DNA from: an uncultured Gammaproteobacteria bacterium
GTDB lineage: Bacteria; Patescibacteriota; Microgenomatia; 2-02-FULL-39-11
NCBI GenBank assembly: GCA_964354025.1
Contig: CAYGXQ010000001.1
Span: 5,963 to 69,962, forward strand
Length of the DNA stretch: 64,000 bases
Direction of reading: 5' to 3'
The number at the start of each line of letters is the position of its first letter. Position 1 is the first letter of the stretch. Shown here in pieces: positions 26,751 to 57,985 of this stretch. Both the position numbers and the translations under genes were made by a program. The notes below the pieces were generated by a model that worked only from the letters and a program-made list of their open reading frames with translations, was not told where the DNA came from and ran no database searches.

Positions 26751-26778
26751 TAGAAGAGGAGAGTATAATATAAAATCT

Positions 26779-28205: not shown

Positions 28206-31200
28206 ATGAGTTCACCGGAACACGGACATCATGGAGGAGACGCCAAGCCGGATTTGATGAAAAGGCTGGCTCAATTTTTTAGGGCGCTTTTTCAAAATAA
28301 AGCGGAGAAAGAGATGGCTGAAAGGGCAGCCGCGGGAGAAATCGCTAAGCGCGATTACGCCAAACACGAAACTGAAGCAAAATGGGAAGAGGAAAGAAGA
28401 AAACGGGAAGAAAGAGACCGGACACGAAAATACCATGAAGCCAGAAGCGCGGAAGTGGCTGAAGCCGAGGTGGAAGTAACCAGACGGCAAAACGCACAGA
28501 AAGTGAGAGATAAGCTGCAAGATGTAATCAATGATACCTCCGGTCAAAACGATATCGAAGGTTCAAGATATCTAATGGCGGAGATAAGAGGAAATACACA
28601 TGTACAAGAAGCCTTGAAGCATCTAATTGACGAAAGTCCCAACGCTAGGGAAGTCATCAGGGAGTTTTTGACGCAAGATAAGCGGGTTCACGGGAGAAGT
28701 CGGGAACTGATCAAACTGACACAGGCGCTTTTGTATGAAGCCCAAAAAACCGGTGACATAGGCAACTTGGATTCTTTTATTACCCAAGTAAAAAAACAAA
28801 TTGACGGACTTTTGATAGATGAATATTCCGCGGCAAATAGAGCAGCTAGGGGAAGGAGGGGGCAGGGATTTAATACTTTCAAGGAATTCTTAGAGGAGGA
28901 ACCGGGAATCGTGATGACTGATGACGAACAAAAAGAACTACAAACGCCTGTTTATTATAAAGATAAAGATAATAAAGATACAGATAGAGTCAATGAAACG
29001 GAAACTACGGAGAAATGGAAAAGAATAGTTCAGGAAATGGTGACAGAACCTCGAGTTGGTACCGTCCGAGCTTTTACTGCTGCGAAAGTAGATAAATTTG
29101 CCGAGAATTATGGCGGCAATATTCCTGACAGTCAAGTTGTCATTGATAAGATGGTGGCGCCGCTTGACCGGGTTTGGGGCGAGCTTGAAAGGAAAGATGT
29201 TGCCGGACAGTTAACGAGTGAAGATTTAATCAAATACAGCCGACAATTAGTCAGGGAAGAATCGCAGATCCGGCCAACTGATGTGGCGCCGGGAAGTGAT
29301 GCTTATTTTGCCGCTTCTCGAGCAATGGGGGATTACATGAATAATAAATTGGAAATTTTAGCCAAGAAGCTGGAAGAAAAATTAAAAGCGGAGAAAGTGG
29401 TCATGAAAGAAGGGATTAACGATGAGACGGAATTTTTGGCGGAAATGGCCAAAAGAAAAGGCCGGATAGGAGATTTGTTTGAACTTAACCCGGCGATGGA
29501 AGAACTTTTATACGGATTGGATGATAAAAGCCGTAAGTTTCGGGATAGAGTTTTTATGAATATCCACTCCAGAGTTTTATCCGATCAACGGAATTCCTCA
29601 AACGATAACTTCGGCCTTTACGAGCGGGCGGATTTTTCGACTATAATTGATCTTTTAAAAGTAGGATTGGAAAAATTTAAGGTAATGGAAACAGGCAGAA
29701 GTTTGGGTGAAACTCTAAGCGACCATTACAATAATCTCAGCAACGCCATCCGCCAGTGCCGGGACATTGATTTTTGGGCCTCCCAACCGGCTGCCAATTC
29801 GGAGAACTTCAACAAATCTCTCGGCATGTTCCAAAATGAGTATGTCAAAGAAGCTCTTAACATCCCTGGGGTGATAGTGGCTTTCCGGGCTTTTGAGGAT
29901 AATCTTCGCAGTATTATCGCTTCCAACGACGGTTATCTGCCGCCGGCTCTCATGGAATACGATGCGACCAGCGGACGCTCTTTCTGGGATAACATGTCCC
30001 GGGCACAGGTTGAGAAAATGGTCGGCATGGGAGTGGTCCCGGGTATCAAAAGAGATGAAAGAAATTATTATCTTCATGTCAGAAATAAAGACGGCTATTC
30101 AGTCGAGATGGACTTTAAAAATCCTTTGAAAAAAGAGGATGTTTCCTCCGATGAGTATCTGATGTATATGACTTTGGCCAAAGGGATCGGAATGGCCACT
30201 GCCCGGTATCTGGAAATGATTGCCCAGACGAAAGTCCCGGGGTCGGACAATCCGACGCTGGGTTTGGATACTTTCCACAGTATGCCTTATGAGGGAATGG
30301 CGAAAGCGATGAACTATTTTAATGTCTATATTGAGAAATGGAAAATGGGTTCATATAAATACGGCCATCTCATGAATATGCTGATACCGGATGAAAAAAA
30401 TAGGATGACAATAGACCAAAATGATTCTACTTCAGCCATCCGCGCTTATATGGCTTACCAGGACGGCACTTTTGAGGAAAAATTCGGCACTGATGCCAAA
30501 AGATTTATTGACCTGACTAATTTCTCCGGCATTTCCTCGGCTATAGGCAAAGACACAACCTGGCGGCAATATGACATGACGCTTGACTGGGAGGACCGGA
30601 AAAAAGAATTTTTAGGCGGTCCGACGCAGCTGGTTTTAAGCAAAAGATACGCGGAGGAGAAAGTCAAAGACCATCTGGTAGTGGCCAAATATCGGGAGCA
30701 ATACCGGCAGGAACTAATCAGCCAAAAATCCGGACTGCCGACCAGCGGCGCCGGTTTTGATAAGCTTTGGCGGGAATACGGGAAAAATAGATATGCTTAT
30801 AACATTGAAAAGGAATGGGAAAAACTTAACGGGCTTGACCCTAAAAAAGGCAGACAGCATACGGCTTTATGGCATCAGACAGACCATTTGATAGGAGCAT
30901 ATAGAAATGCCTTGAAGGCGAGAGTCTGGGTAGAGATGGCCATGAGAAATCCTCTGGTGGTGGCTCACAGCTTAAAAGTCGACCTTCCTTTGGTTGGGGG
31001 AGAGAAACGGAAGAAACAGATGACTCTTCATACCATGCTGGTACAGGATATTTTAGGCATTCCGCCGGAAGATACGAAATACGGTGAGGAAGTCGGTAAA
31101 TCCGCTACCAGAAAATCACCGACAAAACAGCAAGAACAATACATGATTGACGTCATGAATCTGGAGTGGGATCTGGCGGCAGTACGGGAGAAAGCCATCA

Positions 31201-32180
31201 ATGGTGAAGATACAGAATATGTGAGAGATCTGACCGATAAGGATTTTAAGGTTATTGGAGATGAAAAAAGGAAAGAACAGGCTTTGGCTTACTGGAGAAG
31301 AGTGAAAAAAGTAATTTTAGGCAGCGAAGATTCGGCTGAAGCGGATAGATTGATTAAACATTTTGGTTTGGGTCTGATGGAAAATCAGGTGGATTACGAA
31401 TGGGATCATCATCACATCCATGAATTGATGACCGATAAAAAGGACGGCTTTTTGGATAAATTAGATAAACAGTTAAATCAAAGTCCGATGTTTACGATTG
31501 TCGGTTCAGACGGCCAACAGATCGAAATCCCTTTTCTTTTGAAAAAAGCGGTGAAGATGGAGCCGGAGTGGATTTTAGGAACTGACGATATGGTTTTTAA
31601 CAAAATGGATATCCTCAATCTCGGTTCAAGACAGCTGATAAGAAGAGGAGGCGATATTGCCGCCCACCAGGCCGGCGGCGATGCCGTTATTCAGTATCTC
31701 CTGTATGGTTTAACGCCAACGCCAAATAAGGAAGAAGCGGTGAAACTGCTTGCCAAACTTCGTGATGCCTACTCCGGCGATATGATTGAAATCGGTTGGT
31801 CAGTTGGATCCAATCTTGCTTACATGACTGACCGGCTTTATGCCTGGGATTGGAATCATTATGGGCAGTCGGTCGCGCAAAGAGATGTCTGGGGTACAAG
31901 AAGAGGAGTGGCCTCCTGGTTAGCCAATGAAAGACGGGAATGGTGGGATACTTTGGAACACGCTGATGTTTTTCCGCCGAACGCGCATTCTTACTTTTAT
32001 AACATCGATGATAAAGTAAATATCCATACAATGAGAAAATGGTGCCACGCGGATAATTCGGATGTCTGGAAAGAAATCATTGCCCTGGGAGTTTTACTGG
32101 CTTTGGCGATCACCATCTACCGTGCCTTCACCGCCCCAAGTGAAGAAGAAGAGGGCGGCGGTAAAGGCGGACACCATTAG
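28206..32180 (+). CDS. Giant hypothetical protein (1324 aa), with a charged coiled-coil-like N-terminus, one C-terminal TM helix, and an EEEEGGGKGGHH tail
   Basis: A single long ORF with CDS-like composition; no catalytic motif recognised. Convergent with the VirB6-like gene. Confidence 0.6.
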   Translation: MSSPEHGHHGGDAKPDLMKRLAQFFRALFQNKAEKEMAERAAAGEIAKRDYAKHETEAKWEEERRKREERDRTRKYHEARSAEVAEAEVEVTRRQNAQKVRDKLQDVINDTSGQNDIEGSRYLMAEIRGNTHVQEALKHLIDESPNAREVIREFLTQDKRVHGRSRELIKLTQALLYEAQKTGDIGNLDSFITQVKKQIDGLLIDEYSAANRAARGRRGQGFNTFKEFLEEEPGIVMTDDEQKELQTPVYYKDKDNKDTDRVNETETTEKWKRIVQEMVTEPRVGTVRAFTAAKVDKFAENYGGNIPDSQVVIDKMVAPLDRVWGELERKDVAGQLTSEDLIKYSRQLVREESQIRPTDVAPGSDAYFAASRAMGDYMNNKLEILAKKLEEKLKAEKVVMKEGINDETEFLAEMAKRKGRIGDLFELNPAMEELLYGLDDKSRKFRDRVFMNIHSRVLSDQRNSSNDNFGLYERADFSTIIDLLKVGLEKFKVMETGRSLGETLSDHYNNLSNAIRQCRDIDFWASQPAANSENFNKSLGMFQNEYVKEALNIPGVIVAFRAFEDNLRSIIASNDGYLPPALMEYDATSGRSFWDNMSRAQVEKMVGMGVVPGIKRDERNYYLHVRNKDGYSVEMDFKNPLKKEDVSSDEYLMYMTLAKGIGMATARYLEMIAQTKVPGSDNPTLGLDTFHSMPYEGMAKAMNYFNVYIEKWKMGSYKYGHLMNMLIPDEKNRMTIDQNDSTSAIRAYMAYQDGTFEEKFGTDAKRFIDLTNFSGISSAIGKDTTWRQYDMTLDWEDRKKEFLGGPTQLVLSKRYAEEKVKDHLVVAKYREQYRQELISQKSGLPTSGAGFDKLWREYGKNRYAYNIEKEWEKLNGLDPKKGRQHTALWHQTDHLIGAYRNALKARVWVEMAMRNPLVVAHSLKVDLPLVGGEKRKKQMTLHTMLVQDILGIPPEDTKYGEEVGKSATRKSPTKQQEQYMIDVMNLEWDLAAVREKAINGEDTEYVRDLTDKDFKVIGDEKRKEQALAYWRRVKKVILGSEDSAEADRLIKHFGLGLMENQVDYEWDHHHIHELMTDKKDGFLDKLDKQLNQSPMFTIVGSDGQQIEIPFLLKKAVKMEPEWILGTDDMVFNKMDILNLGSRQLIRRGGDIAAHQAGGDAVIQYLLYGLTPTPNKEEAVKLLAKLRDAYSGDMIEIGWSVGSNLAYMTDRLYAWDWNHYGQSVAQRDVWGTRRGVASWLANERREWWDTLEHADVFPPNAHSYFYNIDDKVNIHTMRKWCHADNSDVWKEIIALGVLLALAITIYRAFTAPSEEEEGGGKGGHH

Positions 32181-36053: not shown

Positions 36054-36150
36054 ACCTTCAGTCTAAGGAATCGGAGGCGGATTTGTCAAATGGCGGGAGA
36101 AGAACTAAAATAAGAGCATGAATTTATTAGTTTTGACCGACTTATAAGAT

Positions 36151-36699
36151 ATGTTCGACGAAAAATTGCTAGTCAAAGACATTTTGGCGGGAAACGAAAA
36201 AACCTTAAGGTTTTTTTACCGGCATTTCAAAAATCCCCTTATGAGTTATATAAAAAACAAAGTCGGTAATCCCCAGGATGCCGAAGAAATTATGCAGGAC
36301 GTCCTTCTTTCGACCATTGAAGCTTTCCGGGATTTCACTTTCCGCTGCCGGATTTTTACCTATATTTGCAGTATTGCCAATCACAAAGTGATTGATTATT
36401 ACCGCCGGAAGAAAATAAAAAACATCGTTTTCTCCCGGATCAAAGACGTGGAGCCGTTGATAATTACCCTCTTAAGCCCGGAAACTACTTTCGACGACGA
36501 GCTTTTGAAGGAAAAAATAACCCTGACATTTGGCCGGTTGACACCGCTGTACCGTAAAATTTTAACCTTGAAATATATTGACGGCTATTCCGTTTCCGAA
36601 ATTGCCCGGATGCTCTCCCTTTCTTTCAAAAGCGTAGAGAGCCATCTTTTCCGGGCCAGACGAACGTTTGCGATAATTTTTTCCTATGAAAGAAGATAA
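36151..36699 (+). CDS. ECF-type RNA polymerase sigma-70 family factor
   Basis: Region 2 (FYRHF...DAEEIMQDVLL) and region 4 (YSVSEIARMLSLSFKSVESHLFRARR). Divergent from the pilin array. Confidence 0.8.
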   Translation: MFDEKLLVKDILAGNEKTLRFFYRHFKNPLMSYIKNKVGNPQDAEEIMQDVLLSTIEAFRDFTFRCRIFTYICSIANHKVIDYYRRKKIKNIVFSRIKDVEPLIITLLSPETTFDDELLKEKITLTFGRLTPLYRKILTLKYIDGYSVSEIARMLSLSFKSVESHLFRARRTFAIIFSYERR

Positions 36700-36919
36700 A
36701 ACCTATCAGTTGCTGGTTCAAAGAATGCATGAGGTAGCCCTGTTGCCGACACAAAACGTCGGTTTCTTCACTCCTTTATATAAAAAAATAGCGCCAAAAC
36801 TGAAATTCTCACCCTGGAAAAGCGCCACAGTCATCTCCGTTACGGCCGCCGTCTGTCTGTATATTTTGTTTGGAGCAATTTTGGTTAGATTGGCATCTCT
36901 TCTTCAATTCGGTTTTTAA
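36686..36919 (+). CDS. Putative membrane-anchored anti-sigma factor
   Basis: 77 aa with a single TM, overlapping the sigma factor stop codon. The call rests on position and architecture alone. Confidence 0.3.
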   Translation: MKEDKTYQLLVQRMHEVALLPTQNVGFFTPLYKKIAPKLKFSPWKSATVISVTAAVCLYILFGAILVRLASLLQFGF

Positions 36920-36925
36920 CCCATT

Positions 36926-37555
36926 ATGGCTGATTTTGTCATCAAAATACTCAGACAATCTTTCCTGTTCGGTAGAAATGTTGCCGGCTGTTTGAACAAT
37001 CCTTATATTACTTTTCGGAAAATAGCGCTGGAAAAGAATAATTTTTGGCCGACCGCATTTATTACCCTTTTCTCGCTAGCCTATTTTGAATTTGCCGGTA
37101 TCATCAGAGCCGGTTTAGGCAACCCCATTTTTTTGACGTCGAAATTTAACAGCTTGGTATTGACTTCCTCCATCTGCTTTATCGGCTGCATTTCGCTTTT
37201 TTATCTTTTGGGAAAGATAATGAAGAAGACCGGCAGTTTCAGGACTTTGACCGTGCTTTGGTCTTACTCCCTTTTGCCGACCTTAATTTGGTTTTTTACC
37301 ACTTCCTGTTTGTATCTTATTTTGCCGCCGCCGCGGACGATGAGCATCCTGGGTAAAATCTATAGCGTATTCTATATCGCTTTTTCCATCGCTCTTCTTT
37401 ATTGGAAAATCATCCTTTACTATTTGACCTTGAGGTTCGGCTTGAAAATGGAAATCGGGAAAATTATGCTTGTCTCGGTTGTCTTTGTTGCCTATCTTGG
37501 ATTATTTGCATTGATTACATACCGTTTGGGAGTTTTCCGGATTCCGTTTATATGA
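36926..37555 (+). CDS. Hypothetical polytopic membrane protein
   Basis: 5 TM helices; the stop overlaps the hmgA start (ATGA). Confidence 0.35.
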   Translation: MADFVIKILRQSFLFGRNVAGCLNNPYITFRKIALEKNNFWPTAFITLFSLAYFEFAGIIRAGLGNPIFLTSKFNSLVLTSSICFIGCISLFYLLGKIMKKTGSFRTLTVLWSYSLLPTLIWFFTTSCLYLILPPPRTMSILGKIYSVFYIAFSIALLYWKIILYYLTLRFGLKMEIGKIMLVSVVFVAYLGLFALITYRLGVFRIPFI

Positions 37556-38706
37556 AATTACGACAATATAAAACCATTGAAGAAAGAAGAAAGTTGATCG
37601 AAGAAAAAACCAAGCTTTGTTTTGAGTCTATCAATATTTACCCTAAAGATTTAGAAGAAGCGCAGTTTCGAAACTGCGAAAATATGATCGGAGCAGTTCA
37701 GATTCCGCTTGGCATTGCCGGACCGTTACTGGTAAAAGGTCAGGAAGCCCGGGGAGAATATTTTTTGCCCCTAGCAACGACAGAAGGAGCTTTAGTGGCT
37801 TCAGTCAACCGCGGCTGTAAAGCAGTATCTTTAGCCGGCGGAGTAACTGTTTTTTCGGAAAATGCCGGGATGACCCGGGGTCCGATTTTCAAAACCAAAA
37901 ACCTTGAAGAGAGTTTTATGCTTAAAAAATGGCTGGAAGGGCATTTTGATTTGTTATCTCAAACCGCTTCTTTGACTTCGTCACATATCAAACTTCTTGA
38001 CGTTTTCATGAAAATAGTCGGCCGGAATGTTTATATCCGTTTCTCATACGATACTGATGAAGCGATGGGGATGAATATGGTGACTATTGCTACTGATAAA
38101 ATAGTGAAGTTGATAGAACAAAAGACGGGAACAGTCTGTCTTTCGCTGGCCGGCAATTTTGACACGGACAAAAAACCGTCATGGTTAAATTTTATTTTAG
38201 GCCGCGGCAGACAGGTTTGGGCAGAAGCGTTAATAAGTGAAAAAATAGTGAAGGAGGTTTTAAAAACTACTCCCCAAAAAATCCATCAGGTCGTTTTGGA
38301 TAAATGCCATTTAGGATCAATCGTCAGCGGTTCGATGGGATATAACGCCCATTTCGCCAATATTATTACCGCTCTTTTTATCGCTCTCGGTCAGGACGTT
38401 GCCCACACAGTTGAAGGAAGTCTGGGGGTGACTGCGACAGAAATAGCAAACGGAAATCTTTATATGACCGTCTATCTTCCGGATTTGCCGATCGGGACGG
38501 TGGGAGGAGGGACGGTTTTACCTTCCCAAAAAGAAGCGCTGAAGATTTTGGGAGTCGATCAAGAGAATGGAAAGAAAAACAGCCAGACTTTAGCAGAAAT
38601 TGTTGGAGGAGCCGTATTGGCAGGAGAATTATCACTGCTGGCTGCTTTGGCGCAAGGAGAATTGGCAGAAGCTCACGCGAGTTTGGCAAGAGGAAAAAAT
38701 GCATAA
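37552..38706 (+). CDS. hmgA: HMG-CoA reductase (class I-like)
   Basis: ENxIGxxxxPLGxAGPL, ATTEGxLVAS, DAMGMNMV and GTVGG motifs. The start is the internal ATG at 37552. Confidence 0.85.
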   Translation: MKLRQYKTIEERRKLIEEKTKLCFESINIYPKDLEEAQFRNCENMIGAVQIPLGIAGPLLVKGQEARGEYFLPLATTEGALVASVNRGCKAVSLAGGVTVFSENAGMTRGPIFKTKNLEESFMLKKWLEGHFDLLSQTASLTSSHIKLLDVFMKIVGRNVYIRFSYDTDEAMGMNMVTIATDKIVKLIEQKTGTVCLSLAGNFDTDKKPSWLNFILGRGRQVWAEALISEKIVKEVLKTTPQKIHQVVLDKCHLGSIVSGSMGYNAHFANIITALFIALGQDVAHTVEGSLGVTATEIANGNLYMTVYLPDLPIGTVGGGTVLPSQKEALKILGVDQENGKKNSQTLAEIVGGAVLAGELSLLAALAQGELAEAHASLARGKNA

Positions 38707-39742
38707 AGTCGGAATTACCGCTTACGGTGTTTATGTGCCAAGCAATCGGATTACAACCGCCGAGATTGCTTCTGTCTGGGGAAAAAATGCCGCCGATATC
38801 ACCAGATCATTGGGTGTCACCGAAAAATCAACGGCTGACCGTGATGAAGACACGGTGACTTTGGCCTTTGAAGCCGCTTCCAACGCGCTCCTTCGGACAA
38901 AGATCCTTCCCAGTCAGATAGACGCCTGTTTGGTTGGCTCCGAAAGCCATCCGTATGCCGTCAATCCCACTTCAACCATCGTGGCCGAATTCTTGGGTGT
39001 AGAAAAAAATTACCTGGCGGCTGATTTGGAGTTTGCCTGTAAAGCGGCGACCGCCGGTATAATTGCGCTATCAGGATTATTAATTTCCGGAAAAATCAAT
39101 TACGGTTTAGTGATTGGCAGCGACACCGCCCAAGCCAAACCGCACGATGTTTTGGAATATACGGCGGCGGCTGGCGCAGCCGCCTACATTTTAAGCCGTA
39201 AAGAAGCTGATTTTTTGGCCGAGATTTTGGATTTTGCCTCTTTTTCTTCAGATACTCCGGATTTTTGGCGGAGGGACGCTGTCCGTTTTCCCAGCCACGG
39301 CGGCCGGTTTACCGGAGAGCCGGCTTATTTTTATCATGTCGAATCAAGCGCCAGAAGCCTGCTCCAAAAGACCAAATCAGAACCGGCTGATTTTGCCTAC
39401 TGTGTTTTCCATATGCCCAACGGTAAATTTCCCCGGCAAGCGGCCAAACGTCTGGGTTTTTCCGAGAAACAACTGGCGCCTTCTTTGATTATTGACCAAA
39501 TAGGCAATCCTTACAGCGCCTCCAGTCTTTTAGGACTGGCGGCGGTTTTGGATATCGCCAAGGCCGGCGAAAAAATATTTATGGTTTCATACGGTTCCGG
39601 CGCCGGTTCAGACGCTTTTATTTTCGAAACCACTAAAAATCTTGAAAAAAGGCAAAAATCAGTGCCCACGTTTTCAGGTCAAATGAAAAATAAAAAATAC
39701 ATCTCTTATACCGATTATTTAAAATCAAGTAAAAAAATATGA
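38699..39742 (+). CDS. HMG-CoA synthase (archaeal type)
   Basis: GITAYGVYVP N-terminus plus the catalytic Cys context ACKAAT, at 347 aa. It overlaps hmgA by 8 nt. Confidence 0.8.
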   Translation: MHKVGITAYGVYVPSNRITTAEIASVWGKNAADITRSLGVTEKSTADRDEDTVTLAFEAASNALLRTKILPSQIDACLVGSESHPYAVNPTSTIVAEFLGVEKNYLAADLEFACKAATAGIIALSGLLISGKINYGLVIGSDTAQAKPHDVLEYTAAAGAAAYILSRKEADFLAEILDFASFSSDTPDFWRRDAVRFPSHGGRFTGEPAYFYHVESSARSLLQKTKSEPADFAYCVFHMPNGKFPRQAAKRLGFSEKQLAPSLIIDQIGNPYSASSLLGLAAVLDIAKAGEKIFMVSYGSGAGSDAFIFETTKNLEKRQKSVPTFSGQMKNKKYISYTDYLKSSKKI

Positions 39743-40887
39743 AAATCAATATTGCCGGCGCGGCCACTACCAAATTCGGTGAGCTCTGGCGGACTTCTCC
39801 TCGAGACTTGATCAAAGAAGCGGCCAGTAATGCTTTGGATCAGGCAAAAATAAAACCCTCGGCCGTTAAAGCGGTTTTCGTCGGCAACATGCTTTCCAGT
39901 GCTTTGGGTAATCAGGACCATTTGGGCGCTTTTTTTGCCGAGGAATTGGGGATGCCGGTAGCCGCCATGAAAATAGAAGGCGCTTGCGCCTCAGGCGGTT
40001 TGGCAGTTCATAGCGGTGTGATGGCCATTGAGTCAGGCCTTTACGGGACGGTTTTGGTTTTGGGAGTGGAGAAAATGACCGATCATAAACCTGAAGAAGT
40101 AGCTCAAATGCTGATGGGGGCAGGGACTGATGCCGAACGGGAAGCCGGGGCTACTTTTCCCGGGCTTTACGCGATTATGGCCAGGTGCCACATGCAAAAA
40201 TACGGGACTACCGAAGAGGAGATGGCGCAAGTGGCAGTCAAGAATCATTATCATGCTTCCCTTAATTCCCACGCCCAATTTGTTTTTCCGGTCACTTTGG
40301 AAAAGGTGATGAAGAGTCCGAAAGTGGCCGATCCTCTGAAGCTTTTGGACTGTTCGCCGATTACCGATGGCGCGGCGGCGGTAGTGTTAACAACGACTAA
40401 AGACCAACGAGCAAAGACCAATGTATCCATTATCGCTTCGGTGGTGGCGACCGATACTTTAGGCCTGTCTGAAAGGGAAGATCTGACCGGTTTGAAAGCG
40501 GTGAGAGTTGCCTCCCAAAAAGCCTACCGGATGGCGGGAATTTCCCCGAAAGAAATTGAGGTGGCCGAAGTGCATGACTGTTTTACCATTGCCGAAATCA
40601 TGGCTATGGAAGATTTGGGATTTTTCGAAAAAGGAAAAGCGGCCCGAGCCATCACTTCCGGAAAGACAAAGTTGGGCGGCAGCGGGCCGATAGTCAATAC
40701 TTCCGGAGGGCTGAAAGCCTGCGGTCATCCGGTGGGAGCCACCGGCGTCAAACAGATTGTCGAGATTTACAGTCAGTTAAAAGGAATTGCCGGCCGGAAA
40801 CAGGTTGAAGGAGCAAAAATCGGTTTAACTCATAATGTCGGCGGTAGCGGAGCAACGGCAGTTGTTCATATTTTAATAAAAGGATAA
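39739..40887 (+). CDS. Acetyl-CoA acetyltransferase (archaeal-type thiolase)
   Basis: Catalytic Cys in GACASGG, a C-terminal CGHPVGATG, and N-terminal similarity to SCP-x/archaeal thiolases. Confidence 0.8.
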   Translation: MKINIAGAATTKFGELWRTSPRDLIKEAASNALDQAKIKPSAVKAVFVGNMLSSALGNQDHLGAFFAEELGMPVAAMKIEGACASGGLAVHSGVMAIESGLYGTVLVLGVEKMTDHKPEEVAQMLMGAGTDAEREAGATFPGLYAIMARCHMQKYGTTEEEMAQVAVKNHYHASLNSHAQFVFPVTLEKVMKSPKVADPLKLLDCSPITDGAAAVVLTTTKDQRAKTNVSIIASVVATDTLGLSEREDLTGLKAVRVASQKAYRMAGISPKEIEVAEVHDCFTIAEIMAMEDLGFFEKGKAARAITSGKTKLGGSGPIVNTSGGLKACGHPVGATGVKQIVEIYSQLKGIAGRKQVEGAKIGLTHNVGGSGATAVVHILIKG

Positions 40888-40901
40888 GTATATAAGTATA
40901 T

Positions 40902-41201
40902 ATGATTTCACCTGTAAAAATTTGGCGAAACCAGAAAAGGATAAGACAACTTTTGGGTTTGGAGGGGAAAATCGTTTCCTTTACCAAAATATTCGTGCCG
41001 CCGGCCGGTTTCGAAGCCCAGGCTCCTTATATTGTCGCTTTGGTTAAACTGGACAACGGCCGAAATTTTACCGCCCAGATGGTCGATTGGGAAGAAAAAC
41101 AATTACAGATCGGACAAAAAGTAAAAACCATCCTTCGTAAAACCCGGGACCCGGGAGAAGAAGGGATCATTCCATACGGGATTAAATTCAGACCGATATG
41201 A
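40902..41201 (+). CDS. DUF35 OB-fold protein (scaffold subunit of the archaeal thiolase/HMG-CoA synthase complex)
   Basis: 99 aa; sits between the thiolase and mevalonate kinase genes; lacks the Zn-ribbon. Confidence 0.55.
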   Translation: MISPVKIWRNQKRIRQLLGLEGKIVSFTKIFVPPAGFEAQAPYIVALVKLDNGRNFTAQMVDWEEKQLQIGQKVKTILRKTRDPGEEGIIPYGIKFRPI

Positions 41202-42151
41202 CTCTTACAGTTTCCGCTCCGGGTAAAATCCATCTTTTAGGTGAACACGCGGTCGTTTACGGGAGACCGGCGTTTTTAGCGGCGATTGATAAAAGACTTT
41301 ACGTAAGTATTAAGTATCAGGTATCAGGTATCAGGTATAAAAATAACTCGCTAATTAATTCATCTGAAAAAAAAGATTTGATCCATAGCGCGATTGAAGT
41401 TTTTAAAAAATATTATCAACTAGATAAATTACCTCCAATAGAAATTACCGTAGATTCCCAGATTCCCGTCGGTAGCGGGCTTGGTTCATCGGCCGCGCTT
41501 TCAGCCGCCTTGATCGGCGCACTGATGAAACTTATCAAAAATCTCTGGAATCCGGTAAAAATAAACGAGTTGGTTTACGAAGTGGAAAAAATAGCCCACG
41601 GTCATCCTTCAGGCGCGGATAACACAGCGGTTGTTTTCGGCGGCTTGGTCTGGTACCGGCGTGAATTTGATTTTTTAAAATCCATTTGGAGCTTGCCGGT
41701 TACCGCTTATAAAATCCCTAAATTTCTTTTGATAGATTCGGGCAGACCGATTGAAACAACTAAAAAGATGGTAGAGGCGGTTGCTTCTCAATATCATAAA
41801 AATCCAAAAAAGATGGAAGTAGTTTTTGCCGATCAGGAGAAACAGACAAAAAAACTGCTTTTGGCTTTAAAAAGCGGCGACCGTCAAATTTTGATTAGAA
41901 CGATGAAAAAAGGACAGAGGAATCTGGATAAAATATCTGTTGTTGGTTCATACGCAAGAAAAATTATCAAAGAGATTGAAAAGGCGGGAGGAGCGGCAAA
42001 AGTTACCGGCGCCGGGGGAAAGAAAAAAGGAAGCGGAATGATTCTTGCTTATCATCATGATCCAAGCGTCATCCAGCAAATTGCGGCAATGTTTAAAGTG
42101 TCAGTTTTATCGGTTGATTTAGGAGGAGAAGGAGTGCGGATTGAGTATTAG
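41198..42151 (+). CDS. mvk: Mevalonate kinase (GHMP family)
   Basis: APGKIHLLGEHAVVYG and PVGSGLGSSAA, with a C-terminal GAGGKKKGSG. Contains an in-frame GTATCA hexamer repeat. Confidence 0.75.
   Translation: MTLTVSAPGKIHLLGEHAVVYGRPAFLAAIDKRLYVSIKYQVSGIRYKNNSLINSSEKKDLIHSAIEVFKKYYQLDKLPPIEITVDSQIPVGSGLGSSAALSAALIGALMKLIKNLWNPVKINELVYEVEKIAHGHPSGADNTAVVFGGLVWYRREFDFLKSIWSLPVTAYKIPKFLLIDSGRPIETTKKMVEAVASQYHKNPKKMEVVFADQEKQTKKLLLALKSGDRQILIRTMKKGQRNLDKISVVGSYARKIIKEIEKAGGAAKVTGAGGKKKGSGMILAYHHDPSVIQQIAAMFKVSVLSVDLGGEGVRIEY
41305..41338. repeat. In-frame hexamer microsatellite (AGTATT/GGTATC, about 5.5 units) inside mvk
   Basis: aagtattaagtatcaggtatcaggtatcaggtat, encoding VSIKYQVSGIRYK. Confidence 0.6.
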
Positions 42152-42236
42152 GTATTAGGTATCAAGTATTAAGTATAAAAATACTTTTTTAATAAATACA
42201 TAATACCTAATACTTAATACCTGATACTTTATACTA
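42144..42236. repeat. Palindromic hexamer-repeat hairpin (GTATTA/GGTATC arms) in the mvk-kinase intergenic spacer
   Basis: A left arm of hexamer repeats and a right arm that is its approximate reverse complement, separated by an AT-rich loop. Confidence 0.55.
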
Positions 42237-42238
42237 TT

Positions 42239-43150
42239 ATGTCAATTACAGTAACAGCGCCGGGGAAACTGATGCTCATGGGAGACCATGCGGTGGTTTA
42301 CGGCCGGCCGTGCCTGGTGGCCACCGTTGATAAATATTTGACCGTCAAAGCCGGTTTATCAGATAGTCAAGACGATGTTTTGGCAACGCCCACGGCAAAC
42401 AATCAGACTTTTTTGACCCAGGCGATAAAATTATTCCGGGAACATTACCGGCTGGACAAACCGGTGACGCTCGAGACGGAAAGCGAGTTGGGAAATTACG
42501 GTTTAGGTTCGTCATCGGCGGTGACGGTGGCAACAATCAAAGCCTTAAGCGAGTTATTCCAGCAAAAAATTACGGATAGAGAATTATTTGATCTGTCGTT
42601 TAAAACTGTTTTGTCGGTTCAGGGTTTGGGATCGGGTTTTGACGTGGCCAGCGTCATATATGGCGGCATTATTTATTTTGTTTCCAAAGGTGAAACGATC
42701 GAACGGTTACCGATGACGGATTTAAATTTGGTTGTTGGTTACTCCGGAGTGAAAGCCGATACGGTCAAAATGGTAAAATCGGTGGAAGGAAAAAAGAAAC
42801 AGTACTCGGAAGGGGTAGAGAAAATTTTTAACAGCATTGCCGACTTGGTGGAAAAGGGAAAAAATGCCATCTTTGAAAAAGACTGGCCGACTCTGGGGAA
42901 ATATCTGAATTACCATCAGGACTATCTGGAGGATTTGGGCGTTTCGACGCCAAAACTGGCCGGGATGATTGCGGCGGCCAGGGAAGCCGGCGCCTACGGA
43001 GCCAAGTTGTCCGGAGCCGGCGGAGGAGATTGCATGTTCGCATTAGTTGACCAAACTTCAAAAGAAAAAGTGACCAAAGCAATCGAAAAAGCGGGTGGAG
43101 AAATTGTCGAAATGATTGTTGGAACAGCGAAAGGCGTGAGTCAGGTATGA
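42239..43150 (+). CDS. Second GHMP kinase, probable phosphomevalonate kinase
   Basis: APGKLMLMGDHAVVYG, GLGSSSAV and GAGGGDC motifs. Its position between mvk and the decarboxylase supports the call. Confidence 0.55.
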   Translation: MSITVTAPGKLMLMGDHAVVYGRPCLVATVDKYLTVKAGLSDSQDDVLATPTANNQTFLTQAIKLFREHYRLDKPVTLETESELGNYGLGSSSAVTVATIKALSELFQQKITDRELFDLSFKTVLSVQGLGSGFDVASVIYGGIIYFVSKGETIERLPMTDLNLVVGYSGVKADTVKMVKSVEGKKKQYSEGVEKIFNSIADLVEKGKNAIFEKDWPTLGKYLNYHQDYLEDLGVSTPKLAGMIAAAREAGAYGAKLSGAGGGDCMFALVDQTSKEKVTKAIEKAGGEIVEMIVGTAKGVSQV

Positions 43151-44127
43151 AAGCAACCGCTATCGCACCATCAAATATCGCCTTTATCAAATACTGGGGA
43201 AAGACGGATGAAATCTTGCGTCTGCCGGCAAACAGTAGTATTTCCATGAATTTAAGCGAGTTGCAGACAACTACTACCGTGGAATTTAATAATGATTTAA
43301 ATGAAGACACAGTGCTTATTGACGGGAAAAAAGTTACAGAGCTGAAAAAAAAGCGGGTAACAGAGCATCTGGACCGGATCAGAAAAATGGCCGGAATAAA
43401 TTCGAAAGGGAAAGTAGTCAGTCAAAATAATTTTCCCATGGGAGGAGGATTATCTTCCTCCGCTTCCGCTTTTGCGGCCTTGACCCTGGCGGGAGTGATT
43501 GCCGCCGGTTTGGATTTGACGGAAAAAGAATTGTCAATTTTAGCCAGGCAGGCTTCCGGTTCGGCTTGCCGGTCAATCCCCGACGGTTTTGTGGAATGGT
43601 TGGAAGGTAAAACCAATGAGGATTCCTACGCTGTTTCCCTGTTTCCCCACGACTTTTGGGAGATCTGCGATATTGTCGTTGTTGTTAACACTGCCGAAAA
43701 GGCGGTAACTACTACAGAGGCGCAACAATCGGCCTTTTCCAGCCCGTTTTTCAGGGAAAGATTGAGTAAAATCGACGATAAAATTTCCCTGCTTAAAAAA
43801 TATCTTGGAGAAAAAGATTTCCCTAAATTTGGAACACTCGTGGAAAATGAAGCTTTGGAAATGCACGCTATCATCATGACCTGCCAACCGAGCTATCTTT
43901 ATTGGCTGCCGGAAACGGTCAAATTAATGTTACTCGTGAGACAGTGGCGGAAAGACGGCCTAGCGGTTTATTTTACGATTAATACCGGCCATGATCTGCA
44001 CCTGCTTTGTCAGAAAAATGACGTAGACAGAATAACTCAATTGTTAAAAGTGATCCCGGAGGTAAAAAATATAATAATTAATCAACCGGCAGTCGGGGCA
44101 AAAACAATCGATAAACATTTATTTTAA
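43147..44127 (+). CDS. Mevalonate diphosphate (or phosphomevalonate) decarboxylase
   Basis: N-terminal NIAFIKYWGK, GGGLSSSASAFAAL and RxxSGSACRS motifs. Confidence 0.75.
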   Translation: MKATAIAPSNIAFIKYWGKTDEILRLPANSSISMNLSELQTTTTVEFNNDLNEDTVLIDGKKVTELKKKRVTEHLDRIRKMAGINSKGKVVSQNNFPMGGGLSSSASAFAALTLAGVIAAGLDLTEKELSILARQASGSACRSIPDGFVEWLEGKTNEDSYAVSLFPHDFWEICDIVVVVNTAEKAVTTTEAQQSAFSSPFFRERLSKIDDKISLLKKYLGEKDFPKFGTLVENEALEMHAIIMTCQPSYLYWLPETVKLMLLVRQWRKDGLAVYFTINTGHDLHLLCQKNDVDRITQLLKVIPEVKNIIINQPAVGAKTIDKHLF

Positions 44128-45165
44128 GTGCTTATGCATTTTAAAGATTATTTAGAAGATTCAAAAAAAGAAATTGAAAAAGAGATGTCCATAGTTTTTA
44201 ACGGATGGGAAAAAGAGATTGCCGGGACTAAGCCGAAACTATTGCCGCTATTTCAGGCTTTGGTGGGAAGTATGACCGGCGGGAAGAAATTACGCGGAAC
44301 GCTGGTTAAATTGGGATATTCTCTCATTAATCCCAATCCTCCGCCGGAAATTATTAAGGCGTCTTTAGCTTACGAAATTTTCCAAACTTCCATCCTCATC
44401 CATGATGATATTATTGACAGAAGTGAACTTCGGCGCGGGAAAAAGTCCCTTTACACATTATTAGGTGCTGATCATTATGGCATCTCCCAGGCGATTTGTT
44501 TGGGTGATCTTGGTTTTTTTCTCTCCCTAAAACTTTTTAATTCATTGGATTTTCCTAAAACCAATAAAGAGATGGCTACCCGGTTATTTATCCAAACAAT
44601 GCAGGATACGGTTTTGGGAGAAATGGCGGATATTCAGGAAGCCGGGAAAAAATTAATTTCCGAGAAAAAAATTATTGATATTTATCGCAGTAAAACCGCC
44701 CTCTATACCATCATCGGACCGATGCAGCTTGGCGCGGTTTTGGCTGGAGCTGATAAAAAAATTCTTACTGAGATAAGAAATTTCGGCGAAAATTTAGGAA
44801 TTGCTTTCCAAATATATGATGATATCATAGGAGTTTTTGGTCAAAAAGAAATCACCGGCAAATCGGCCTCATCTGATATTAAAGAAGGGAAAGCCACCTT
44901 ACTATTGATTGAGGCGAGAAAACAGGTCAATCAAAAACAATTAGATATTCTTGACAAATATTACGGTCAAGATAAAGTAACAGAAAATGAAGCGGAAATA
45001 ATAAGAAAAGTTTTTATTGAAACAGGCGCATTGACATGCACAGAAGAAAAAGCTAAGGAATATATGACCGAAGCCAAAGCGCAAATCTCTACAATGAAGA
45101 TAAGCAGTAATATGAGGAAAATATTATTTGAATTAGTAGACGATCTTACCAATAGAGTAAAATAA
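44128..45165 (+). CDS. Polyprenyl diphosphate synthase (trans-isoprenyl diphosphate synthase)
   Basis: First DDIID (LIHDDIIDR) and second DDxxD (QIYDDIIG) motifs. Confidence 0.85.
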   Translation: MLMHFKDYLEDSKKEIEKEMSIVFNGWEKEIAGTKPKLLPLFQALVGSMTGGKKLRGTLVKLGYSLINPNPPPEIIKASLAYEIFQTSILIHDDIIDRSELRRGKKSLYTLLGADHYGISQAICLGDLGFFLSLKLFNSLDFPKTNKEMATRLFIQTMQDTVLGEMADIQEAGKKLISEKKIIDIYRSKTALYTIIGPMQLGAVLAGADKKILTEIRNFGENLGIAFQIYDDIIGVFGQKEITGKSASSDIKEGKATLLLIEARKQVNQKQLDILDKYYGQDKVTENEAEIIRKVFIETGALTCTEEKAKEYMTEAKAQISTMKISSNMRKILFELVDDLTNRVK

Positions 45166-45169
45166 GCCT

Positions 45170-45913
45170 ATGATAAAGGGAAATATTCCCACACACGTCG
45201 CTTTCATCATGGACGGCAACCGCCGGTGGGCCAAAGAACGCGGTAAGCCAGTCTTTGAAGGTCACCGGGAAGGGGAAAAGCGGGTTGAACCGCTGATCGA
45301 TAAAGCGATAGAAATGGGTATTTCGCATCTTACTTTTTGGGCCTTCTCAACGGAAAATTGGTACCGTTCAAGCAAAGAAGTGCAATTCCTCTGCAATATA
45401 TTCAGGTATGTCCTTGATAAAAAATACGACGCATATCACCGGAAAAACATAAAAATAAATATCATTGGTGATCTATCCAAATTTCCGGAAGATATTCAGA
45501 AAAAGACCAAAAAGTGGATGGAGGAGATGAAAAATAACAAGAAAATCACCGTTAATTTTGCCTTAAATTACGGCGGTCGGGACGAGATTATGCGCGCCAT
45601 TAATAAATTGAATCATGAATTAAGAATTAAGAATTATGCCTGTCCGCCATCAGCTATTGCTGAAGGCAATTGCAGGCGGGAATTAGGAGTAACAAAAGAA
45701 GAATTTGAGAAATATTTGGATACGGCGGGACAGCCGGATCCGGATCTGATCATAAGAACCGGAGGCGAAAAAAGACTATCCGGTTTTCTTTTGTGGCAGT
45801 CGGAATACGCGGAATTGTATTTTACCGAATCTTTTTGGCCGGATTTTACTCCGGCGGAATTTGAGAAAGCGGTTGATGATTATTCAAACAGAAAGAGAAG
45901 ATTTGGGAAATAG
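45170..45913 (+). CDS. uppS: Undecaprenyl diphosphate synthase (cis-prenyltransferase)
   Basis: HVAFIMDGNRRWA, FSTENWYR and RTGGEKRLSGFLLWQ motifs. Confidence 0.9.
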   Translation: MIKGNIPTHVAFIMDGNRRWAKERGKPVFEGHREGEKRVEPLIDKAIEMGISHLTFWAFSTENWYRSSKEVQFLCNIFRYVLDKKYDAYHRKNIKINIIGDLSKFPEDIQKKTKKWMEEMKNNKKITVNFALNYGGRDEIMRAINKLNHELRIKNYACPPSAIAEGNCRRELGVTKEEFEKYLDTAGQPDPDLIIRTGGEKRLSGFLLWQSEYAELYFTESFWPDFTPAEFEKAVDDYSNRKRRFGK

Positions 45914-46045: not shown

Positions 46046-46882
46046 ATGGATAGAGAGCGCCTGACCATCACTTTAAAAAAATCCCTACTGACTAAAGTAG
46101 ACGGTTTCATCGACGGGACGAAAATCAGAAACCGTTCACACGCCATCGAGTATTTAGTCACCCAAAGCTTATCTCCCCGGGTAAACCAGGCGGTTATCCT
46201 GGTTGGCGGAAAGGGACTGAATATGCGGCCATTTACTTTTGAGATGCCCAAAGGGCTTTTCCCGGTTGGCGGCCGGCCGATTTTAGAGCACATTGTTGAG
46301 AGGCTGAAAAAATACGAGATCAGGGATATCATTTTTTCCATCGGCCATCTGGGAGAGAAAATCAGGGAACATTTCGGCGACGGCAAGAAATTCGATGTCA
46401 AAATCACTTACGTCGATGAAAGCAAAGAAGCGGGTACCGGCGGAGCGCTGGTCTTGGCGAAAAAATATCTTAAAAGCGAATCGTTTCTGGTTATCCACGG
46501 CGATATTTTGATTGACATCAATCTGGCAGATTTAGTGGCTTTCCACAAAGAACAGGGGACGGTCGGGACAATTGCCTTAACCTCGGTCGTTGATCCTTCC
46601 AGTTTCGGGGAAGTGATTTTGCATGGCGCCCTCATCAAGCAATTTATCGAAAAGCCGGAAAAGGGACGGCAGACTTCGCAGTTGATCAACAGCGGCCTCT
46701 ATGTTTTTGACAGGGAAATTTTTGATTATTTGCCCAAAACCGGCAGTTGCCTTTTAGAAGATATTTTTTCCAAGCTGGCCCAAAACCGGCAACTTTCCGG
46801 ATTCCTCTTTGCCGGCCGGTGGGTAGATATCGGCACGCCTCAATCCTACGAAAAAGCCATCAAAGAGTGGGGGAAGATATAA
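46046..46882 (+). CDS. Sugar-phosphate nucleotidyltransferase with an N-terminal ribbon-helix-helix-like extension
   Basis: ILVGGKGLNMRPFTFEMPKGLFPVGGRPIL is the NTP-transferase signature. The first ~40 aa (RLTITLKKSLLTKVDGFIDG...RSHAIEYLV) resemble a CopG/RHH fold. Confidence 0.6.
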   Translation: MDRERLTITLKKSLLTKVDGFIDGTKIRNRSHAIEYLVTQSLSPRVNQAVILVGGKGLNMRPFTFEMPKGLFPVGGRPILEHIVERLKKYEIRDIIFSIGHLGEKIREHFGDGKKFDVKITYVDESKEAGTGGALVLAKKYLKSESFLVIHGDILIDINLADLVAFHKEQGTVGTIALTSVVDPSSFGEVILHGALIKQFIEKPEKGRQTSQLINSGLYVFDREIFDYLPKTGSCLLEDIFSKLAQNRQLSGFLFAGRWVDIGTPQSYEKAIKEWGKI

Positions 46883-52220: not shown

Positions 52221-52505
52221 TTAATTCTTTTCGGATCGTTTGTCCAATTCCATCATGATTTCTTTGGGAGTAATATTAACCGATGCCAAAAAGACTAATA
52301 AGTGAAACCAAAGGTCAGCCATTTCGGAAATGATCATTTTTCTATTTTTGTTTTTTCCGGCAATGATTACTTCACTGGCTTCTTCCCCGATTTTTTGAAG
52401 GATACGATCTGTTCCATTTTTACACAAAAAAACAACATACGACTTTTTTGGAAGCGTTTTTAATCGTTCTTGAATAATGGTAAATAATTTATTTAGCGTC
52501 ATCAT
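52221..52505 (-). CDS. hisE: Phosphoribosyl-ATP pyrophosphatase
   Basis: 94 aa; EEASEVIIAGKN and EMADLWFHLLV motifs. Confidence 0.8.
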   Translation of the reverse strand: MMTLNKLFTIIQERLKTLPKKSYVVFLCKNGTDRILQKIGEEASEVIIAGKNKNRKMIISEMADLWFHLLVFLASVNITPKEIMMELDKRSEKN

Positions 52506-52816
52506 ATTTTTTCCCTAAAACAACTTTTATATCCCCAGTGACAGGCGGCCGAACCGATTAAATCTGCTTTTATAAGCAAAGTATCTCTGTCACAATCGGT
52601 AAAAATATTTTTCACCCGTAATTTATTACCCGAAGATTCTCCTTTTAACCAAATTTTTCGTCGGCTTCGGCTCCAGAAATAGACATAACCGGTCTTTAGC
52701 GTAAGTTGCAGAGCTTGTCTATTGGTATAACCGAGCATTAATACTTCAGCGGATTTTTCTTCCTGAATGATAACCGGAATCAATCCAGTTAGTTTTTCAA
52801 AGTTAAGTTTTCTCAT
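52502..52816 (-). CDS. hisI: Phosphoribosyl-AMP cyclohydrolase
   Basis: 104 aa; GLIPVIIQ and CDRDTLL...CHWGYKSCF motifs. Confidence 0.85.
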   Translation of the reverse strand: MRKLNFEKLTGLIPVIIQEEKSAEVLMLGYTNRQALQLTLKTGYVYFWSRSRRKIWLKGESSGNKLRVKNIFTDCDRDTLLIKADLIGSAACHWGYKSCFREKI

Positions 52817-52817
52817 A

Positions 52818-53576
52818 TTAATTCCTTATAAAAATATTTTTATTTTTTAAATATGTTTTTACATCAGGAACCGTTAATTCTCCAAAGTGGAAAAGGGAAG
52901 CCGCCAACGCCGCATCCGCTTTTCCTTCTTCAAAAATTTCTGCAAAATCAGACAATTTACCGGCACCGCCTGAGGCAATTACTGGGATTGAGAGGTTGCT
53001 TGATACGAGCCGTGTCAATTCCAGATCAAAGCCTTTTTTTGTCCCGTCAGAGTCAATGCTGGTTAAAAGTATTTCTCCGGCACCCAATGCTGCCGCTTTT
53101 TTGGTCCAGTCAAAGGCGGAAATACCGGTATCGGTTCGGCCGCCATTAATAAAGACGTGCCACTCGTCAGGACCGGTTTTTCTGGCATCAAGTGATAAAA
53201 CCACACACTGACTGCCGAAAATATTGGCGCAGTCGCTGATCAGTTTCGGACGATTGAAAGCACCGGTATTCACAGAGACTTTATCAGCCCCGGTACGAAG
53301 AATAATCCGCATATCTTCAATAGTCCGCACTCCACCACCGACGGAAAAAGGGATAGTAACCTCAAGAGCGGTTTTTTTCACTACCTCCAGTAAAATATCC
53401 CTATTTTCCACCGTGGCGGTGATATCCAAAAAGACCAATTCGTCGGCCCCCTGCCGGTCGTAAACTTTGGCTAGCTTGACCGGATCGCCGGCATCACGAA
53501 AAGTCTCAAAGCATATGCCTTTGACGACTTTACCTTCAGTCATATCCAGACAGGGAATAATCCGTTTAGTCAACAT
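52818..53576 (-). CDS. hisF: Imidazole glycerol phosphate synthase cyclase subunit
   Basis: RIIPCLDMTEGKVVKG, SVGGGVRT and ASGGAG motifs. The start is set at the internal ATG (MLTKRIIPC). Confidence 0.9.
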   Translation of the reverse strand: MLTKRIIPCLDMTEGKVVKGICFETFRDAGDPVKLAKVYDRQGADELVFLDITATVENRDILLEVVKKTALEVTIPFSVGGGVRTIEDMRIILRTGADKVSVNTGAFNRPKLISDCANIFGSQCVVLSLDARKTGPDEWHVFINGGRTDTGISAFDWTKKAAALGAGEILLTSIDSDGTKKGFDLELTRLVSSNLSIPVIASGGAGKLSDFAEIFEEGKADAALAASLFHFGELTVPDVKTYLKNKNIFIRN

Positions 53577-56640: not shown

Positions 56641-56665
56641 ATGTAACAGATAGCATGCATCCGTG

Positions 56666-57970: not shown

Positions 57971-57985
57971 AATTTACTCCTTAAA

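Follow-up and report, generated by a model that had tools for sequence, protein, structure and literature searches.

We describe a run of nine genes on the + strand at 37552-45913 of a 64,000-nt stretch of DNA (the window, to whose positions all coordinates refer) from a Gottesmanbacteria-like bacterium of the candidate phyla radiation (CPR). With a probability of roughly 0.7, these genes are proposed to form one transcription unit leading from acetyl-CoA to undecaprenyl diphosphate, the lipid carrier for cell-envelope glycans. The upper half of the pathway, comprising 3-hydroxy-3-methylglutaryl-CoA (HMG-CoA) reductase (HMGR), HMG-CoA synthase (HMGS), acetoacetyl-CoA thiolase and a DUF35 protein, is archaeal in type. 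The lower half, with two GHMP kinases and an MVD-family decarboxylase, is likely to be classical and to follow the chemistry of eukaryotes and Firmicutes. Thiolase and HMGS, probably joined by a DUF35 protein without a zinc ribbon as in the archaeal channelling complex, would make HMG-CoA, which the class I reductase would convert to mevalonate. Kinase A would then phosphorylate mevalonate, kinase B would phosphorylate mevalonate 5-phosphate, and the decarboxylase would turn mevalonate 5-diphosphate into isopentenyl diphosphate (IPP), from which a trans-prenyl synthase and UppS would build the C55 chain. The supply of dimethylallyl diphosphate (DMAPP) would depend on an IPP isomerase encoded elsewhere in the genome, and the unit may begin upstream, at an extracytoplasmic function (ECF) sigma factor and a Yip1 membrane protein.

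Families were assigned using Pfam and curated models (TIGR, NF and PRK) scored against the cutoffs of the models. The list of open reading frames (ORFs) and the family matches, which far exceed chance, gave nine co-directional genes on the + strand, in the order and at the coordinates stated in an earlier reading made from the letters of the DNA alone (the sequence-only reading). That reading had also noticed overlapping ATGA starts. Three such overlaps fall within the region, at HMGS/thiolase, at DUF35/kinase A and at kinase B/decarboxylase, and another is found at its 5' boundary, where the Yip1 gene runs into HMGR. The HMGR and HMGS genes share 8 nt, and the other intergenic gaps measure 0 to 14 nt, save for an 87-nt spacer between the two kinase genes. 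The nearest homologues of the operon proteins carry the names Candidatus Gottesmanbacteria or Microgenomates, in agreement with the CPR-like host first suggested. The window also holds tmRNA and SmpB, an ECF sigma factor, type IV secretion system (T4SS)-type pilin genes and a RuBisCO-like gene, all of which fit a CPR bacterium. In order to compare gene order, species-representative genomes were scanned with a profile of kinase B, which gave 80 loci, mostly Microgenomates as regards conserved order. HMGR, HMGS, thiolase, DUF35, kinase A and kinase B follow one another in 54 of these 80 loci, and the decarboxylase is followed by UppS in 53.

HMGR (37552..38706, +; PF00368, E = 4e-121) is a soluble, archaeal-like protein of 384 aa. 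It passed the class I (NADPH-type) model TIGR00533 barely (442.5; cutoff 441.8) and stayed far under the class II model TIGR00532 (60.5; cutoff 260). Its best Protein Data Bank (PDB) match was 6HR7 from Methanothermococcus thermolithotrophicus (372 bits), compared with 276 bits for human HMGR. The PDB matches at E <= 1e-10 were 6HR7, from an archaeon, and class I enzymes including human HMGR; known class II reductases such as that of P. mevalonii were not among them. The class I assignment of the sequence-only reading is upheld by these scores. HMGS (38699..39742, +) exceeded the archaeal models NF003274 (488 bits; cutoff 244) and TIGR00748 (427; cutoff 353) and fell short of the bacterial model TIGR01835 (129; cutoff 360); its best PDB match was 6ESQ_I (359 bits). 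It keeps the catalytic tetrad E82, C114, H238 and N270, the E-C-H-N tetrad as defined in PMC12960953. The thiolase (39739..40887, +) passed PRK06064 (480; cutoff 420), remained under the cutoff of the M. thermolithotrophicus-specific equivalog NF053570 (453; cutoff 600), and matched 6ESQ_A best (321 bits). Its motifs include C83-A-S (CxS), GHP at residue 329 and, at residue 279, HDCF; HDxF is the hallmark of archaeal acetoacetyl-CoA thiolases (PMC12960953) and part of the shared CoA site. The archaeal models and the 6ESQ matches bear out the archaeal type first proposed for HMGS and thiolase.

For HMGR, HMGS, thiolase and DUF35 alike, the best solved relative comes from M. thermolithotrophicus (6HR7 or 6ESQ). 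The term archaeal-type, which the sequence-only reading had applied to the pathway as a whole, holds for this upper half and not for the lower half, which has GHMP kinases and an MVD homologue. After mevalonate, the archaeal route proceeds through phosphomevalonate dehydratase, a UbiD-type decarboxylase and isopentenyl phosphate kinase (IPK).

Homologous tripartite complexes of bacteria have been repurposed as acyltransferases (PMC12960953), and PhlA, PhlB and PhlC are among the weaker PDB matches of the trio proteins. That the thiolase, the HMGS-like protein and DUF35 constitute an acyltransferase of the PhlABC/MucABC kind instead of a mevalonate module is nonetheless scarcely credible. The HMGS tetrad and the thiolase HDxF are lost where such complexes turned into acyltransferases (PMC12960953); both are intact here, so that the module should make HMG-CoA. 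In addition, the archaeal HMGS and thiolase scores are about twice those of the Phl proteins, and the trio genes are flanked by HMGR and a mevalonate kinase.

The DUF35 gene (40902..41201, +) encodes a protein of only 99 aa, with an N-terminal helix and an OB fold. It matched PF01796 only, the model of the C-terminal OB fold (49.5 bits; cutoff 27.1), and its best PDB match was 6ESQ_E (58.6 bits), which agrees with the OB-fold partner gene named in the sequence-only reading. Residues 17-99 align to 48-128 of 6ESQ_E (the OB fold) and residues 5-16 to 3-17 (the N-terminal helix). The alignment skips approximately residues 18-47, so that the rubredoxin-like zinc ribbon of about 30 residues is deleted, and the window protein contains no cysteine at all. 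Related DUF35 genes, mostly of 98-109 aa, show two CxxC motifs in 0 of 63 cases; loss of the zinc ribbon is a trait of the lineage, as judged from these genes. The ribbon is present in every characterised DUF35 complex member, and a scaffolding role for the window protein is hence an extrapolation. Based on gene adjacency and the retained N-terminal helix, the shortened DUF35 is presumed to bridge thiolase and HMGS.

Kinase A (41198..42151, +) and kinase B (42239..43150, +) both pass the mevalonate kinase model TIGR00549 (186 and 192, respectively; cutoff 163). Kinase A contains PVGSGLGSSAA and HGHPSGADN, the usual mevalonate kinase segments, whereas kinase B lacks HGxPSGxDN and carries YGLGSS, GSGFDVAS..YGG and KLSGAGGGDC. 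On all three phosphomevalonate kinase (PMK) models kinase B outscored kinase A, and on none did it reach the cutoff: TIGR01220 gave 111.7 against 49 (cutoff 165.7), NF040957 gave 94.4 against 68 (cutoff 500), and TIGR01219 gave 27.7 against 18.5 (cutoff 377). The S. pneumoniae PMK 3GON and the Listeria PMK homologue 3K17, with sequences taken from the PDB search, served as references, and kinase B shares three active-site segments with both. These are YGLGSS, compared with KF/YGLGSS in the reference PMKs; GSGFDVASVIYGG, compared with GSCGDIASCMYGG; and KLSGAGGGDC, compared with KSSGAGGGDC. Kinase B fits the motif patterns that were scored, namely (K)F/YGLGSS, GSxGD[LI]A..YGG and SG[AS]GGGDC, which we take to be diagnostic of PMKs. 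SGAGGGD does not vary among 30 kinase B homologues, and K, L and C on its flanks are at least 90% conserved.

Several Parcubacteria loci, and loci labelled as DPANN, combine a kinase B orthologue (about 45% identity) with an HGxPSGxDN kinase. In the same loci the orthologue also lies beside a decarboxylase with the full signature of mevalonate diphosphate decarboxylase (MDD), that is, Lys19, Arg190 and Met193. Since a full-signature MDD needs mevalonate diphosphate, the kinase B orthologue in those loci must supply it, and this co-occurrence is the strongest argument that kinase B may act as a PMK. We infer that kinase A is a mevalonate kinase and that kinase B is a PMK resembling mevalonate kinases overall. 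The sequence-only reading had left the second kinase undecided between a PMK of the classical route and an enzyme of an alternative route; the PMK motifs and the MDD-linked orthologues narrow the choice toward the classical route.

Global similarity does not discriminate between the two kinases, because both families score higher on the mevalonate kinase (MVK) of M. mazei than on two PMKs; whole-sequence profile scoring was therefore set aside as a discriminator. AlphaFold models of the kinases (pLDDT 93.5 and 90.3) were searched against the PDB using Foldseek. Mevalonate kinases were the top matches for both, and for kinase A they made up all the top matches. The PMK-like 3K17 came 8th in the kinase B search and 18th in that of kinase A, and its TM-score with kinase B, 0.89, equalled that of the top match. 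The structure-based assignment that the sequence-only reading had recommended was thus not decisive and did not separate the kinases. It is conceivable that their roles are reversed, with kinase B as the mevalonate kinase and a divergent kinase A as the PMK. Kinase B scores above kinase A on the archaeal mevalonate kinase model PRK03926 (232 bits against 144), on M. mazei 6MDE (147 bits against 81) and in profile scores (217 against 144), and NCBI names both proteins mevalonate kinase. We regard this exchange as rather unlikely, given that the classic mevalonate kinase motifs reside in kinase A and the PMK-type YGLGSS, GSGFDVA and GGGDC in kinase B, and that the three PMK models and the ranks of 3K17 both favour kinase B as the PMK.

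The decarboxylase (43147..44127, +) exceeded the cutoff of TIGR01240 (258.1; cutoff 171.35) and remained under that of the phosphomevalonate decarboxylase (PMD) model NF040704 (201.8; cutoff 475). Its best solved relative is the Anaerolinea thermophila enzyme 6N0X/6N0Z (294-297 bits, 43% identity), compared with 206 bits and 38% identity for the E. faecalis MDD. 6N0X is a PMD (PMC9254496). 6N0Z is an engineered variant of it; comparison of the PDB sequences shows that Lys takes the place of Asn in the YWGN segment, and Met that of His in a loop. MDDs contact the terminal phosphate through Tyr18, Lys21, Ser139, Ser141 and Ser192, of which the Lys is MDD-specific (Dellas 2013, Table 4). The window enzyme keeps Tyr16, Lys19, Ser137 and Ser139 (the Ser-Gly-Ser segment) of these contacts. 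At the Ser-Arg of Firmicute MDDs it carries Thr189-Thr190, with Thr189 in place of Ser192, and its Gln193 corresponds to Met in MDDs and to His in the Anaerolinea PMD, a signature intermediate between the two known specificities. Among 150 family representatives, 67 show Lys/Met, about 35 show a non-basic residue with His (the PMD pattern, which includes a Chloroflexi cluster), and 37 are hybrids with Lys or Arg and His. Position 19, the Lys21-equivalent, is Lys or Arg in 69 of 72 CPR decarboxylases (96%); position 193 is Met, Gln or His among close relatives of identical gene content. With Lys19 and Gln193, the window protein has neither the non-basic residue at the Lys21-equivalent nor the His193-equivalent by which PMDs were recognized.

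Several points weigh against the pathway as proposed. The DUF35 protein is without the zinc ribbon that all characterised complex members have, and both kinases pass the mevalonate kinase model while neither reaches a PMK cutoff. In sequence and in fold both kinases are nearer to M. mazei MVK than to PMKs, kinase B more so. The nearest solved relative of the decarboxylase is a phosphomevalonate decarboxylase, and the enzyme lacks the Arg193-equivalent of MDDs (Thr190) and has Gln in place of their Met. Lastly, a decarboxylase fused to IPK (protein P0272 of locus L082) has Arg19, Ser190 and His193, so that diphosphate specificity cannot be concluded from a basic residue at position 19 alone; Lys or Arg at this position was accordingly dropped as proof.

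These points bear on an alternative route in which mevalonate 5-phosphate would be the substrate of the decarboxylase and isopentenyl phosphate its product, to be phosphorylated by either an unlinked IPK or kinase B. It would accommodate the Anaerolinea PMD as closest solved structure, and Thr190 with a residue other than Met at 193 is nearer to the PMD and to the Arg19/Ser190/His193 of the IPK-fused protein than to the Lys/Arg/Met of MDDs. Furthermore, an IDI-like domain follows kinase B or is fused to it in 23 relatives, which would link kinase B to IPP, and some CPR carry IPK (PMC6107057). We nevertheless consider the alternative route unlikely. Sequences with the PMD signature pair a non-basic residue at position 19 with His193 (compare Dellas 2013, Table 4), unlike the Lys found here and the Lys or Arg of 96% of CPR homologues, and kinase B orthologues co-occur with full-signature MDDs. 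Pfam scans of the window ORFs revealed no IPK (AA_kinase), nor did the conserved neighbours in the 80 loci, searched to a distance of 10 kb, include an IPK-like family. The argument from fusions is weak, as fusions of non-consecutive mevalonate enzymes are known (kinase A-decarboxylase and kinase B-decarboxylase). More doubtful still is a specific form of this route, in which the Microgenomates lower pathway would be non-classical, with the decarboxylase acting on mevalonate 5-phosphate and kinase B serving as a GHMP-fold isopentenyl phosphate kinase; if true, kinase B would replace the amino-acid-kinase-fold IPK of every known alternative route.

The classical route, on the kinase evidence and the absence of IPK taken together, remains our preferred reading of the lower half; the PMK motifs of kinase B and its orthologues beside full-signature MDDs make it the most likely one, and mevalonate diphosphate is the most likely substrate of the window decarboxylase. 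In published phylogenies, MVK, PMVK and DPMD are assigned to CPR (PMC6107057). Locus L082 (GCA_015657915.1, NPIE01003509.1, 6774-12883), from a genome that is not in the set of 72 CPR homologues, holds a standalone Lys/Arg/Met decarboxylase and the IPK-decarboxylase fusion side by side, and the same cluster has a Nudix-PMK-like fusion and a mevalonate-kinase-like gene. Judging from this gene content, that genome may run both routes.

The operon had been called complete in the sequence-only reading, a description that does not hold, because an isomerase is absent from the window; the same reading had itself listed no IPP isomerase. Pfam scans of every other sizeable ORF of the 64-kb window found no IDI, no AA_kinase (IPK) and no enzyme of the methylerythritol phosphate (MEP) pathway, and tblastn of an IDI-like domain against the window returned nothing better than E = 0.2. 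The one Nudix gene of the window (16551-17030) was considered as an IDI candidate and matches no IDI model. Among the relatives, an IDI-like Nudix gene lies between kinase B and the decarboxylase in 13 loci, of Roizmanbacteria and others. In 10 loci, including some Gottesmanbacteria, kinase B instead ends in a fused IDI-like Nudix domain of about 170 aa (proteins P0184, P0216, P0220 and P0230; loci L012, L024, L026, L030, L042, L044, L053, L054, L058 and L060). The kinase B-linked Nudix domain of the relatives scores 79-83 on NF002995 (cutoff 127) and 58-76 on TIGR02150 (cutoff 105.8), below the IDI cutoffs, yet IDI ranks first or joint first among its matches. This IDI-like gene has been lost from the operon in the window and its nearest relatives. 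Ordering the pathway steps from fusion partners (the Rosetta-stone approach) was rejected, since kinase B-IDI, kinase B-decarboxylase, kinase A-decarboxylase, PMK-like-decarboxylase and IPK-decarboxylase fusions all exist and the partners do not fix the order of steps.

The last two genes of the run encode prenyl synthases. The trans-polyprenyl diphosphate synthase (44128..45165, +; PF00348, 194 bits), with DDIID as first aspartate-rich motif, exceeded the cutoff of no NCBIfam equivalog and presumably supplies the allylic primer for UppS. UppS itself (45170..45913, +), the undecaprenyl diphosphate synthase or cis-prenyltransferase, scored 259.5 on TIGR00055 (cutoff 109.55) and has DGNRR at residue 15. 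Downstream lies a gene for a sugar-1-phosphate nucleotidylyltransferase (46046..46882, +; PF00483, 155 bits) whose N-terminus is extended by about 47 aa. This gene is found 3' of UppS in the nearest relatives only (L002, L003, L021 and L072), so that a link to the operon is possible but loose. By eye, the extension resembles a ribbon-helix-helix DNA-binding domain.

On the upstream side, an ECF-type sigma-70 factor (36151..36699, +; Pfam Sigma70_r2/r4; TIGR02937 80.6, cutoff 42.9) is followed by a small ORF of 77 aa (36686..36919, +) that overlaps the sigma gene stop by 14 nt. This ORF has one hydrophobic segment, no family match was found for it, and it is a candidate anti-sigma factor or membrane partner. 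Next comes a Yip1-domain, multi-pass membrane protein (36926..37555, +; PF04893, E = 5e-7), whose stop overlaps the HMGR start (ATGA). The order sigma, Yip1, HMGR occurs in 46 of the 80 loci, and Yip1-HMGR in 50. Because the sigma and Yip1 genes are conserved upstream and the Yip1 and HMGR genes overlap, the functional unit probably starts with them, about 1.4 kb before 37552. The retention of this order suggests envelope-linked regulation of lipid-carrier synthesis. The best sigma-70-like promoter match of the region, TTGTCA-17-TAAAAT at 36083..36111 (+), just upstream of the sigma gene, agrees with the consensus at 10 of 12 positions and may mark where the transcription unit begins; it is weak evidence, as the total of promoter-like sites in the region is not above the shuffled expectation.

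The spacer between the kinase genes contains arrays of the heptamer RGTATYA at 42140-42176 (+) and, inverted, at 42195-42228, which together form a hairpin with a 20-bp stem (42140..42228, +). The predicted RNA has a minimum free energy of -31.7 kcal/mol (z = -6.0), and the motif was matched 9 times against 0.03 expected. An RGTATYA array is also present inside the kinase A coding sequence (41306-41338), where it encodes IKYQVSGIRYK, the sole low-confidence stretch of the kinase A model. None of the 80 related loci has the element, which was found only in a Logan contig of the same organism (L001). An mRNA stem-loop is one possible reading of the hairpin, a small palindromic insert another. 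Further tandem arrays with a 7-nt period occur at 45617-45636, 16587-16618, 3381-3405 and 58963-58993, some of them in coding sequences: GAATTAA is repeated 2.9 times in UppS (45617-45636), at an ELRIKNY stretch, and AAGCGGA 4.6 times in the Nudix gene (16587-16618). Such arrays could shift the reading frame of genes by slippage.

In ten related loci of the Roizmanbacteria type (L009, L013, L017, L018, L025, L029, L035, L040, L045 and L080), one or two small T4SS-pilin-like genes are inserted in the cluster on the opposite strand, between the decarboxylase and UppS. Their products have a transmembrane segment and, after it, a conserved S/TxGxxxK motif such as TSGGDKEK, and similar pilin genes lie in the window at 33.8-36.0 kb. 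An IPK suspected between the decarboxylase and UppS in Roizmanbacteria loci proved to be two such genes on the minus strand.

Elsewhere in the window, a RuBisCO large-subunit homologue (25362-26750) is followed by an overlapping hexokinase-family gene (26668-27987), and an ORF of 1324 aa (28206-32180) is without a Pfam match at E <= 1e-4. The - strand carries a histidine biosynthesis run (52221-58861) of hisE/hisI, hisF, hisB, a HAD phosphatase, hisC, hisD and hisG, which is unusual given the reduced metabolism of CPR. Records of metagenome-assembled genomes with the CPR-type operon (L005, L007, L008 and many more) are often titled 'uncultured Gammaproteobacteria' (TPA assemblies), which look like labelling errors; the title of a few others is 'Aenigmatarchaeota'.

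The genomes of CPR bacteria are very small, and most of these bacteria are unable to make membrane lipids of their own. A self-contained operon leading from acetyl-CoA to the C55 lipid carrier would show which biosynthesis they keep. The mix of an archaeal upper and a classical lower half has been used in arguments on the age of the mevalonate pathway (PMC6107057, PMC11052028); with the mix already in the literature, the locus adds no new concept.

Among known systems, the complex of M. thermolithotrophicus (6ESQ/6ET9) provides the best solved relatives of the thiolase, HMGS and DUF35 (321, 359 and 58.6 bits), and its catalytic and CoA-site motifs are kept in the window proteins. In the presumed complex of the window, by contrast, DUF35 has lost the rubredoxin-like zinc ribbon. 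Three GHMP-fold steps are common to the window locus and the lower pathway of Firmicutes (mvaK1-mvaD-mvaK2) and eukaryotes, as are the PMK motifs and the decarboxylase Lys21-equivalent. The window locus differs in that kinase B is far nearer to mevalonate kinases than to Firmicute PMKs and falls under every PMK cutoff, that the window decarboxylase is without the Arg and Met of the MDD signature, and that the window HMGR, HMGS and thiolase are of other classes. With the PMD and IPK route of Chloroflexi and haloarchaea (Dellas 2013, 6N0X), the window shares a decarboxylase that is 43% identical to the Anaerolinea PMD and has the same Thr190. It departs from that route in having a second GHMP kinase, in the IPK not found in the window, and in a Lys at the key position where PMDs have Asn or Leu.

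The closest parallel is the CPR mevalonate gene set reported by Hoshino and Gaucher in 2018 to be clustered with a cis-prenyltransferase gene and to mix archaeal with bacterial/eukaryotic characters (PMC6107057). A 2024 study takes a 'eukaryote-type pathway in CPR' as established. The window locus agrees with the 2018 cluster in lineage, in synteny with the cis-prenyltransferase and in combining an archaeal upper half with a bacterial/eukaryotic lower half. The sequence-only reading had described this arrangement correctly, had interpreted it rightly in part and had not treated it as known; the hybrid operon is in fact already published for the same lineage and is ordinary for the group. The 2018 study finds IDI-I and IPK genes syntenic in many CPR, whereas the window locus has neither. 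DUF35 has 0 occurrences in that paper, and neither the upstream sigma and Yip1 genes nor kinase B-IDI fusions are mentioned there. In the literature searched, we found no description of the zinc-ribbon-less DUF35, the conserved sigma and Yip1 genes, the kinase B-IDI fusions or the intermediate decarboxylase signature; these are refinements of the published CPR operon and not a new kind of system.

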